Source: Escherichia coli
Lineage (GTDB): Bacteria; Pseudomonadota; Gammaproteobacteria; Enterobacterales; Enterobacteriaceae
Reading direction: 5' to 3' (one strand)
Assembly (NCBI RefSeq): GCF_003334335.1
Contig: NZ_QOWQ01000012.1
Length of the DNA stretch: 64,000 nt
How positions within the stretch are numbered: the stretch's first letter is position 1; the number at the start of each line of letters is the position of its first letter. Positions 1,236 through 1,904 of the stretch are shown piece by piece. The notes under the pieces were generated by a model that made no database searches, had not been told where the DNA came from, and saw nothing but the letters and a program-made list of their open reading frames with translations. The position numbers and the translations under genes are program-made.

Positions 1236-1904
1236 ATGCCCGTCAAGGATTTGACGGGCATTACTGCAAAGGACGCGCAAATGTTATCTGTAGTTAAACC
1301 TCTTCAGGAATTTGGTAAGCTCGATAAATGTTTGTCCAGATACGGTACGCGCTTCGAGTTTAATAATGAAAAGCAAGTTATATTTTCCAGTGATGTCAAT
1401 AACGAAGATACTTTCGTTATTTTAGAGGGAGTTATCTCTCTGCGTAGAGAAGAAAACGTACTTATCGGTATTACCCAGGCTCCTTATATTATGGGGCTGG
1501 CTGATGGTTTAATGAAAAACGATATACCATACAAATTAATATCAGAAGGAAATTGTACGGGATATCATCTACCAGCCAAACAAACCATTACGCTTATTGA
1601 ACAAAATCAACTCTGGCGAGACGCTTTTTACTGGTTAGCCTGGCAAAATAGAATTCTGGAATTACGCGACGTGCAGCTCATTGGGCATAATTCCTACGAA
1701 CAAATCCGCGCAACATTATTATCAATGATTGACTGGAATGAAGAATTGCGATCACGTATTGGTGTGATGAATTATATCCATCAACGTACACGCATATCGC
1801 GTTCTGTCGTCGCAGAAGTTCTCGCTGCTTTGCGTAAAGGCGGCTATATCGAAATGAATAAAGGCAAACTGGTCGCTATCAACCGTTTGCATTCAGAGTA
1901 TTAA
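1236..1904 (+). CDS. yaiV: putative transcriptional regulator YaiV (possible CRP/FNR-like C-terminal helix-turn-helix)
   Basis: 222-aa ORF from the track; C-terminal segment RTRISRSVVAEVLAALRKGGYI resembles a helix-turn-helix. Start is uncertain: a 9-bp-stem hairpin (1238-1259) overlaps the first codons and a second in-frame ATG lies at 1281. Confidence 0.7.
   Translation: MPVKDLTGITAKDAQMLSVVKPLQEFGKLDKCLSRYGTRFEFNNEKQVIFSSDVNNEDTFVILEGVISLRREENVLIGITQAPYIMGLADGLMKNDIPYKLISEGNCTGYHLPAKQTITLIEQNQLWRDAFYWLAWQNRILELRDVQLIGHNSYEQIRATLLSMIDWNEELRSRIGVMNYIHQRTRISRSVVAEVLAALRKGGYIEMNKGKLVAINRLHSEY

Follow-up and report, generated by a model that had tools for sequence, protein, structure and literature searches.

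Does the yaiV gene of Escherichia coli encode a regulator of the CRP/FNR type, what might such a regulator sense, and does the gene stand alone or belong with a neighbor? We took up these questions in a 64,000-nucleotide stretch of E. coli DNA (contig NZ_QOWQ01000012.1 of RefSeq assembly GCF_003334335.1), which is called the window below and to which all coordinates refer. A frame of 222 codons is open throughout positions 1236 to 1904 of the plus strand. The original prediction, made from the letters of the window, had read it as YaiV, an orphan with a CRP/FNR-type helix-turn-helix (HTH), lying tail-to-tail with ampH and having no obvious partner. We found that the gene is the known iprA ("inhibitor of hydrogen peroxide resistance"), which encodes a transcription factor of the CRP/FNR superfamily, and that iprA and its relatives adjoin genes for surface adhesins. 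Taken as a whole, the explanation that we develop here, covering the identity of IprA, its fold, and a proposed role in adhesin regulation, is in our judgment probably right.

yaiV is iprA

The product of the frame matched the NCBIfam equivalog NF008810 (hydrogen peroxide resistance inhibitor IprA) with 454.3 bits (E = 4.8e-137; cut-off, 359), model positions 1 to 207 aligning with residues 16 to 222 of the 222-residue translation. RefSeq places iprA (624 nt, 207 amino acids) at the same site and reads the stretch as ehaB/autotransporter, iprA, ampH, and sbmA. The NCBIfam matches of the neighbors agree: an autotransporter β-barrel (66 to 1193), AmpH (1905 to 3062, minus strand), and SbmA. Two papers, one of them PMC11408624, equate yaiV with iprA, and Ishihama and colleagues entered YaiV as the uncharacterized member of the Crp family (PMC4797297), alongside which the CRP/FNR superfamily includes Crp, Fnr, and YeiL. 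The name YaiV was therefore correct. The gene name, the Crp-family listing, and the phenotype of a Salmonella mutant are all already known, and the gene is otherwise ordinary. The surrounding DNA is E. coli chromosome, positions 77 to 3400 of the window matching thousands of complete E. coli genomes at 95 to 100% identity. Nearly all iprA orthologs encode 207 amino acids, and residue numbers below are those of this product unless stated otherwise.

IprA is modeled with the fold and domain order of CRP

We built an AlphaFold2 (AF2) model of IprA on 30 orthologs (pLDDT, 82.9). It consists of a β-barrel (residues 23 to 98), a long helix (112 to 135), and a winged HTH (137 to 200), which is the domain order of CRP, and the N-terminal barrel has the eight strands that mark the CRP/FNR superfamily. 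Three tryptophans of the long helix, W112, W118, and W121, are invariant among the orthologs. In a Foldseek search with the model, the top 50 matches were all full-length CRP-family chains, aligned over some 200 to 220 columns with E values of about 1e-8; the TM-score was only about 0.5 because the relative orientation of the domains limits it. CooA, PrfA, CprK, NtcA, FixK2, and Cmr were among the best fold matches, at only 6 to 17% sequence identity to IprA.

Profile comparison pointed the same way. A search of 1.84 billion cluster representatives returned 505 clusters of relatives at E ≤ 1e-3, and from these we made a profile of 59 sequences. Hhalign matched this profile to E. coli CRP (the CRP sequence used is identical to PDB 1g6n_A) with 93.9% probability and an E value of 1.5e-7 over 179 columns, the alignment running from IprA residue 17 to 197 against CRP residues 14 to 203 and so taking in both domains. 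When the profile was run against PDB sequences with hmmsearch, cyclic nucleotide monophosphate (cNMP) domains (PKG) came up with an E value of 1e-8 and full-length CAP chains with one of about 1e-3.

The C-terminal HTH that had been predicted is present, and it is a strong winged HTH, but it is of the Pfam type HTH_46 rather than HTH_Crp_2. HTH_46 (PF15977) matched over model positions 1 to 66 of 68 (residues 153 to 218 in the numbering of the 222-residue translation) and was matched by 59 of 59 family members; HTH_Crp_2 was significant in no family member (best E values, 0.056 to 0.075). In both hhalign and Foldseek, the domain nonetheless aligned to the HTH of CRP.

Four points weigh against the assignment to the CRP family and what we draw from it. 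The match of this protein to Pfam cNMP_binding (PF00027) was marginal (E = 0.014 to 0.016), and among the 30 orthologs only 6 reached an E value of 1e-3 or better and 21 a value of 0.1 or better. PDB sequence searches with the single protein and with the 30-ortholog profile reached no CRP-family chain. Hhalign of this narrow profile against CRP gave only 1.6%, so that the diverse profile was needed. Finally, the comparison of individual residues with CRP that follows in the next section is based on one hhalign alignment and the CRP numbering of the literature, not on a structural superposition. With these points taken into account, the model and the profile match support membership of IprA in the CRP/FNR superfamily at the level of fold and remote homology. 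The CRP/FNR likeness first proposed for YaiV thus stands for fold and superfamily and falls for the type of HTH and for the sensor residues, which are absent.

Two weaker similarities were seen in passing. The PDB sequence searches also gave a weak match to a FadR-type HTH, and IprA residues 97 to 145 or so (window positions ~1569 to 1715) showed a weak, repeated similarity to phycobilisome linker repeats (CpcN, Glr1262; summed E value, 7e-9), which is probably due to chance, since Pfam does not see it.

Sensor and DNA-contact residues of CRP and FNR are largely replaced

Of the residues with which CRP contacts cAMP, only G71 is kept in IprA. E72 is replaced by Leu73, R82 by Ile82, S83 by Pro83, T127 by Leu126, and S128 by Glu127. 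The residues at columns 82 and 83 differ among the 59 family members, with Arg or Ser never dominant, and no Arg or Glu is conserved at the cAMP-contact columns. The β4-β5 hairpin is shorter than in CRP. Nor does IprA have the N-terminal extension or the Cys cluster of FNR; its orthologs carry two to six scattered cysteines, among which only Cys92 is near-invariant. We rejected cAMP sensing on account of the five replaced contacts and an FNR-like Fe-S sensor on account of the missing cluster and extension. Judged by these residues, IprA would sense neither cyclic nucleotides nor, through an Fe-S cluster, oxygen.

The same evidence makes it most improbable that IprA is a true cyclic-nucleotide-responsive paralog of CRP, binding cAMP, cGMP, or c-di-GMP in its barrel and then DNA. 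Such a sensor would fit the fold, which is that of cNMP-binding domains, the six orthologs that match cNMP_binding at 1e-3 or better, and the labels "CRP-like cAMP-binding protein" and "cyclic nucleotide-binding protein" that some sources give to homologs. The contacts are nevertheless replaced in IprA, with no Arg or Glu conserved at these columns in the family, and many CRP-family proteins, CooA, PrfA, CprK, NtcA, FixK2, and Cmr among them, keep the barrel for another ligand or for none.

A thiol redox sensor has precedents in FLP and FixK2. Oxidation of Cys92, perhaps together with Cys17, would switch DNA binding by IprA, which would explain the peroxide phenotype of the Salmonella mutant. 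The gene name, induction by cysteine, and induction by hypochlorite all point to redox stress, and Cys92 is found in 29 of the 30 orthologs and in 32 of the 59 members of the wider family, Cys17 in 22 of the 30 orthologs. In the wider family, however, almost half of the members have lost Cys92 and most have lost Cys17, and a peroxide phenotype can be indirect. We therefore regard a thiol switch as unlikely.

In the recognition helix, R174 corresponds to R180 of CRP and is kept, while E181 is replaced by Ser175 and R185 by Glu179. In the wider family, 32 of the 59 members have Lys or Arg at position 179, where the IprA orthologs have Glu. From these replacements, we would expect the DNA site of IprA to differ from both the CRP box and the FNR box. 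The loss of two of the three base-contact residues, together with the acidic residue at 179 in the orthologs and the lack of a known IprA binding site, could also be taken to mean that IprA acts mainly through protein-protein contact, for instance with RpoS or another regulator, rather than by binding DNA, and produces the peroxide phenotype in that way. This is quite improbable: the S-R-S motif of the recognition helix is near-invariant (R174 in 55 and S175 in 57 of the 59 sequences) and no part of the protein is better conserved than the winged HTH, which is the pattern expected of a surface that reads DNA.

iprA and its relatives adjoin surface-adhesin genes

Contrary to the view that the gene sits alone, the 3' part of ehaB/yaiT, an autotransporter adhesin gene, ends 87 bp upstream of the iprA start codon (ATG 1281) on the same strand. 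Every ortholog locus that we examined (in Salmonella, Raoultella, Enterobacter, Franconibacter, and a metagenomic relative of 42% identity) has a gene for an EhaB/SeaB-type autotransporter of 920 to 985 amino acids directly upstream and on the same strand, separated by a gap of about 75 to 110 bp. The gene order hemB-autotransporter-iprA-ampH-sbmA is common to E. coli, Salmonella, Raoultella, Enterobacter, and Franconibacter.

The adjacency is conserved beyond simple synteny. A partner of the EhaB/SeaB type also lies directly upstream of a Citrobacter paralog (59% identity) that has no hemB or ampH nearby, and an autotransporter gene likewise directly precedes a Rahnella homolog (33% identity) in a heme-uptake neighborhood. 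On two Enterobacter plasmids, a gene for an inverse autotransporter is found about 65 bp upstream of an IprA-family gene. Chaperone-usher fimbrial operons adjoin distant IprA-family genes in six further contexts, sometimes with two copies of the regulator. Genes for outer-membrane proteins (MipA/OmpV-like, a porin, FadL-like plus a small barrel, and YfaZ) adjoin in four contexts, and one IprA-family gene lies beside lipopolysaccharide genes. In all, about 17 nonsyntenic contexts were seen, about 10 of them with adhesins and 4 with other outer-membrane proteins. By a rough estimate, not a computed control, a random gene would be expected to have such a neighbor in well under 10% of cases. Because iprA and its relatives adjoin surface-adhesin genes, iprA is not an orphan.

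Other features of these loci can be recorded here. Distant IprA-family genes are often paired, standing in tandem or on the two sides of a chaperone-usher operon; the pairs are at 6001 to 6642 and 11088 to 11663 in locus L009, at 7962 to 8624 and 8719 to 9360 in L011, and at 7884 to 8492 and 8560 to 9201 in L012. Genes for LuxR/GerE-type regulators are sometimes found near IprA-family genes (L008 and L009). Two short metagenomic contigs (L017 and L018) gave little, and a 460-residue neighbor encoded in L018 had no Pfam or NCBIfam match. A genome-wide locus search with a narrow alignment returned three loci. Several records of 0.7 to 5 Mb that are filed as plasmids in the plasmid collection are evidently chromosomal. 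Klebsiella has been reported to lack seaB; in two Klebsiella records filed as plasmids (L146 and L147), an IprA-family gene lies between argG and a gene for a YfaZ-family outer-membrane protein.

A possible role for IprA in adhesin regulation

The phenotypes on record belong to the Salmonella protein (STM0374, YaiV; Herman et al. 2016, J Bacteriol 198:2166, PMC4966445), not to the E. coli allele in the window. Loss of iprA is reported to raise hydrogen peroxide resistance in Salmonella, a genetic phenotype, and IprA is cited as an influence on the expression of fim (type 1 fimbriae) in S. Typhimurium. The Salmonella protein is an ortholog of 71% identity and 207 amino acids that matches the NF008810 equivalog and is encoded in the same locus order with the same palindrome upstream (see below); the E. 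coli copy described here differs in having His204 in place of Pro and a disrupted autotransporter gene upstream. The Salmonella phenotype has reportedly been tied to catalase and RpoS.

We propose that IprA is a dimeric CRP-fold transcription factor with a diverged pocket and that it belongs with the adjacent adhesin gene. It would control ehaB/seaB or, like PapX and MrpJ, couple expression of the adhesin to other programs. Type 1 fimbriae and peroxide resistance, both altered in Salmonella iprA mutants, are the candidates for such programs, and the peroxide phenotype would be one output of adhesin-coupled regulation. That IprA is attached in this way to ehaB/seaB, controlling or coupling that adhesin, is a plausible reading that we put forward tentatively.

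PapX is a MarR-like and MrpJ an XRE-like protein, and both are encoded at the 3' ends of fimbrial operons. IprA resembles them in that the gene for a small DNA-binding regulator directly follows or adjoins an adhesin gene or operon and in that another adhesin system, fim, is reported to be affected. The folds are unrelated, however, and iprA has its own promoter, so the likeness is one of gene placement only.

A wider and more speculative possibility is that IprA and the other HTH_46 proteins form an unrecognized CRP-fold clade with a degenerate pocket, dedicated to the surface loci of Enterobacterales in the manner of PapX and MrpJ. The targets of such a clade would be classical and inverse autotransporters, chaperone-usher fimbriae, and outer-membrane proteins, and the genes for its members would typically follow the adhesin gene directly or adjoin it. 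The conserved palindrome upstream of iprA would then be an operator or a leaky terminator; as a leaky terminator, it would let read-through from the adhesin gene set the level of IprA.

Several observations count against a link between IprA and the adhesin. The association is one of gene neighborhood in 17 or so contexts that were sampled by availability, some being related to one another, and two of the contexts had no adhesin or outer-membrane neighbor. The 2026 paper on SeaB in Salmonella describes seaB as lying beside hemB and upstream of iprA and gives no regulatory link between them. The literature examined described neither a DNA-binding site nor a regulon or ligand of IprA. A search of the ehaB promoter turned up no copy of the palindrome. 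Cotranscription cannot be general either, since several genera have terminator hairpins between the autotransporter gene and its iprA-like neighbor.

A promoter of its own and a conserved palindrome precede iprA

A genomic-SELEX study identified a constitutive sigma-70 promoter in the spacer between yaiU and yaiV and flagged it as bound by H-NS (PMC3946193). Our simple consensus scan for promoters and terminators found nothing between yaiT and iprA and thus missed this published promoter. Expression of yaiV rises by 4.5 log2 with cysteine, as confirmed by quantitative reverse transcription-PCR, and a predicted CyuR site overlaps the promoter (PMC11408624). Binding and regulation by FNR at yaiV were seen only when H-NS and StpA were both missing, in an hns stpA mutant (PMC3688515). 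Our own scan picked out a weak candidate FNR-like box in the 3'-terminal part of yaiT, some 88 bp before the predicted start of iprA. In Salmonella, the iprA transcript rises in hypochlorite (PMC9065344). The GC content of iprA is 39.3%, compared with 50 to 55% in its neighbors, and its third codon positions are AT rich. IprA would be expressed from its own H-NS-silenced promoter in the 87-bp spacer.

A perfect inverted repeat with 13-nt arms lies between this promoter and the coding sequence. It occurs once in the 64-kb window and, folded as RNA, has a free energy of −21.5 kcal/mol (z = −4.4). The palindrome is kept in Salmonella, Raoultella, and Franconibacter and upstream of the Citrobacter paralog; across these five genera and paralogs, counting E. 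coli, four base pairs differ in both arms, and no pair differs in one arm only. Because this covariation comes from five sequences, it does not distinguish between an RNA hairpin and a symmetric operator. The published promoter would put the transcription start at about 1235, at the foot of the palindrome. Transcription beginning there would give the mRNA a hairpin at its very 5' end; alternatively, the palindrome would serve as an operator.

A second copy or half-site was sought in the ehaB promoter, the window, and the ortholog loci, and only partial matches at chance level were found. Among the 120 matches listed by a metagenome scan for the palindrome, most were unrelated palindromes; only 15 were associated with iprA, and these brought no new variant. 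No Rfam family was matched in window positions 1 to 6000. Since no good U-tract follows the palindrome, it would be at best a leaky terminator for ehaB. In Enterobacter, Rahnella, and the metagenomic relative, ordinary terminator hairpins stand in its place. On the minus strand, the palindrome is followed by a U-rich stretch (UUUAGAUU), which could also stop antisense transcription running from ampH through iprA.

Translation of iprA almost certainly starts at ATG 1281

The frame first described, from 1236 to 1904, exists, but its start coordinate does not hold: translation almost certainly begins at ATG 1281 and yields the 207-residue product. This is the start used by RefSeq, by the NCBIfam model, and by nearly all orthologs. 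A Shine-Dalgarno sequence precedes it, and the AGGA is kept at an equal distance before the ATG in Salmonella, Raoultella, and the Citrobacter paralog. Read directly, the sequence before ATG 1236 contains no Shine-Dalgarno sequence.

We consider it highly improbable that the 222-residue protein, with the N-terminal peptide MPVKDLTGITAK (MPVKDLTG...), is a real product. In its favor, the E. coli frame is open from 1236, and a few database entries from other genera carry an extension of the form MPV...TGI. The leader is not a conserved frame, however. The stretch before the conserved ATG measures 43 nt in Salmonella and the Citrobacter paralog, which puts the extension out of frame, and 52 nt in Franconibacter; the Raoultella leader is 45 nt long and is interrupted by an in-frame TAA. 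ATG 1236 itself sits within the left arm of the conserved palindrome and at the expected start site of the published promoter. What accounts for the few proteins with the MPV...TGI extension is thus a conserved palindrome and not a conserved peptide.

The 3' end of iprA and the copy in this strain

The tail-to-tail arrangement with ampH was described correctly. The stop codons of iprA (1902 to 1904) and ampH (1905 to 1907) abut with 0 bp between them, and a consensus scan found no plus-strand terminator after iprA; the two transcripts must therefore overlap as antisense RNA. The stop codons also abut in the Raoultella locus (L003), and the two genes overlap in the Enterobacter locus (L004).

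The iprA allele in the window carries a single difference. Of 5,426 complete E. coli genomes searched, 5,407 matched the stretch, and none was identical over the 60 bases around position 1891: this position is A here, giving His204, and C (CCT, Pro204) in all 5,407 genomes that hold the surrounding 60 bases. A1891 is the only difference within iprA. Pro204 is kept in 29 of the 30 orthologs and in 58 of the 59 family members. Either a true private mutation or an error of sequencing could lie behind P204H. The nearest complete genome, that of strain MEI4BO-21, differs at one other base in 24.8 kb (window positions 1200 to 26000); this base, at 17323, lies within mak (fructokinase) by the annotation of MEI4BO-21.

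The upstream adhesin gene is truncated here by insertion of an IS1414-like element (window positions 1 to 89); all complete E. coli genomes lack an insertion at this point. Other strains have IS3, IS1, or a frameshift in ehaB, so the gene has been inactivated repeatedly. With ehaB broken and IprA changed at residue 204, the adhesin-regulator module of this strain looks decayed.

It might be supposed, further, that the whole locus is a decaying remnant in this strain, with IprA impaired by P204H, its partner adhesin dead, and the gene doing little. The private change at a Pro kept in 58 of 59 relatives, the interruptions of ehaB here and elsewhere, and the H-NS-silenced promoter would all agree with this. 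The iprA frame is intact, however, and the gene is present in 5,407 of the 5,426 genomes; residue 204 lies in the C-terminal tail past the wing, where the model is less confident, and the change may be no more than a sequencing error. A remnant that does little is a rather unlikely description of iprA in this strain. Table 1 gives the positions of the features.

Table 1. Features in and around iprA in the 64,000-nucleotide window
Feature	Position	Strand	Remarks
End of IS256-like element, IS1414 family	1..89		95.6% identity to IS1414 copies; interrupts ehaB
ehaB/yaiT, 3' part (autotransporter adhesin)	66..1193	+	375 codons; β-barrel translocator; TIGR01414, E 1e-87; RefSeq, ehaB/autotransporter
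Weak FNR-like box, GTGAC-GTAG-ATCAA	1141..1154	+	Candidate from our own scan; 2 mismatches to TTGAT-N4-ATCAA
Sigma-70 promoter of yaiV	1199..1228	+	−35, TTCACT (1199-1204); 18-nt spacer; −10, TTTAAT (1223-1228); PMC3946193
Predicted CyuR box, GAAGAAATACTGGTAATTTAATC	1207..1229	+	PMC11408624, Table 1; overlaps the promoter
Perfect 13-nt inverted repeat, TAATGCCCGTCAA-GGAT-TTGACGGGCATTA	1234..1263		5'-leader hairpin or two-fold symmetric operator
First 15 codons of the 222-codon frame	1236..1280	+	Most likely 5' untranslated leader; frame not conserved
Shine-Dalgarno sequence, AAGGA	1269-1273	+	7 nt before ATG 1281; read from the sequence
iprA (yaiV) coding sequence	1281..1904	+	207 amino acids plus stop; most likely the true gene (NF008810, RefSeq, ortholog length)
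N-terminal β-barrel domain	1347..1574	+	Residues 23-98; cNMP-binding-like fold without nucleotide contacts
Long helix, like the C-helix of CRP (dimer interface in CRP)	1614..1685	+	Residues 112-135; AF2; hhalign to CRP 113-136
C-terminal winged HTH, Pfam HTH_46	1692..1889	+	Residues 138-203; PF15977, E 2.8e-29; aligns to the CRP HTH
Codon 204, CAT (His)	1890..1892	+	Single-nucleotide change at 1891; private missense at a family-invariant Pro
ampH	1905..3062	−	NCBIfam NF007943 AmpH, 700 bits; convergent, abuts iprA

Implications

The family-wide association with adhesins and the palindrome are modest leads, and of all that is described here the adhesin link alone is possibly new. The prediction that no cyclic nucleotide is the effector of IprA would spare a fruitless search, and the conserved palindrome provides an obvious candidate operator or leader hairpin. 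The adhesin link gives the first regulatory targets to consider for IprA, ehaB/seaB and fim, and it suggests a way in which EhaB/SeaB, silent under laboratory conditions, might be regulated.

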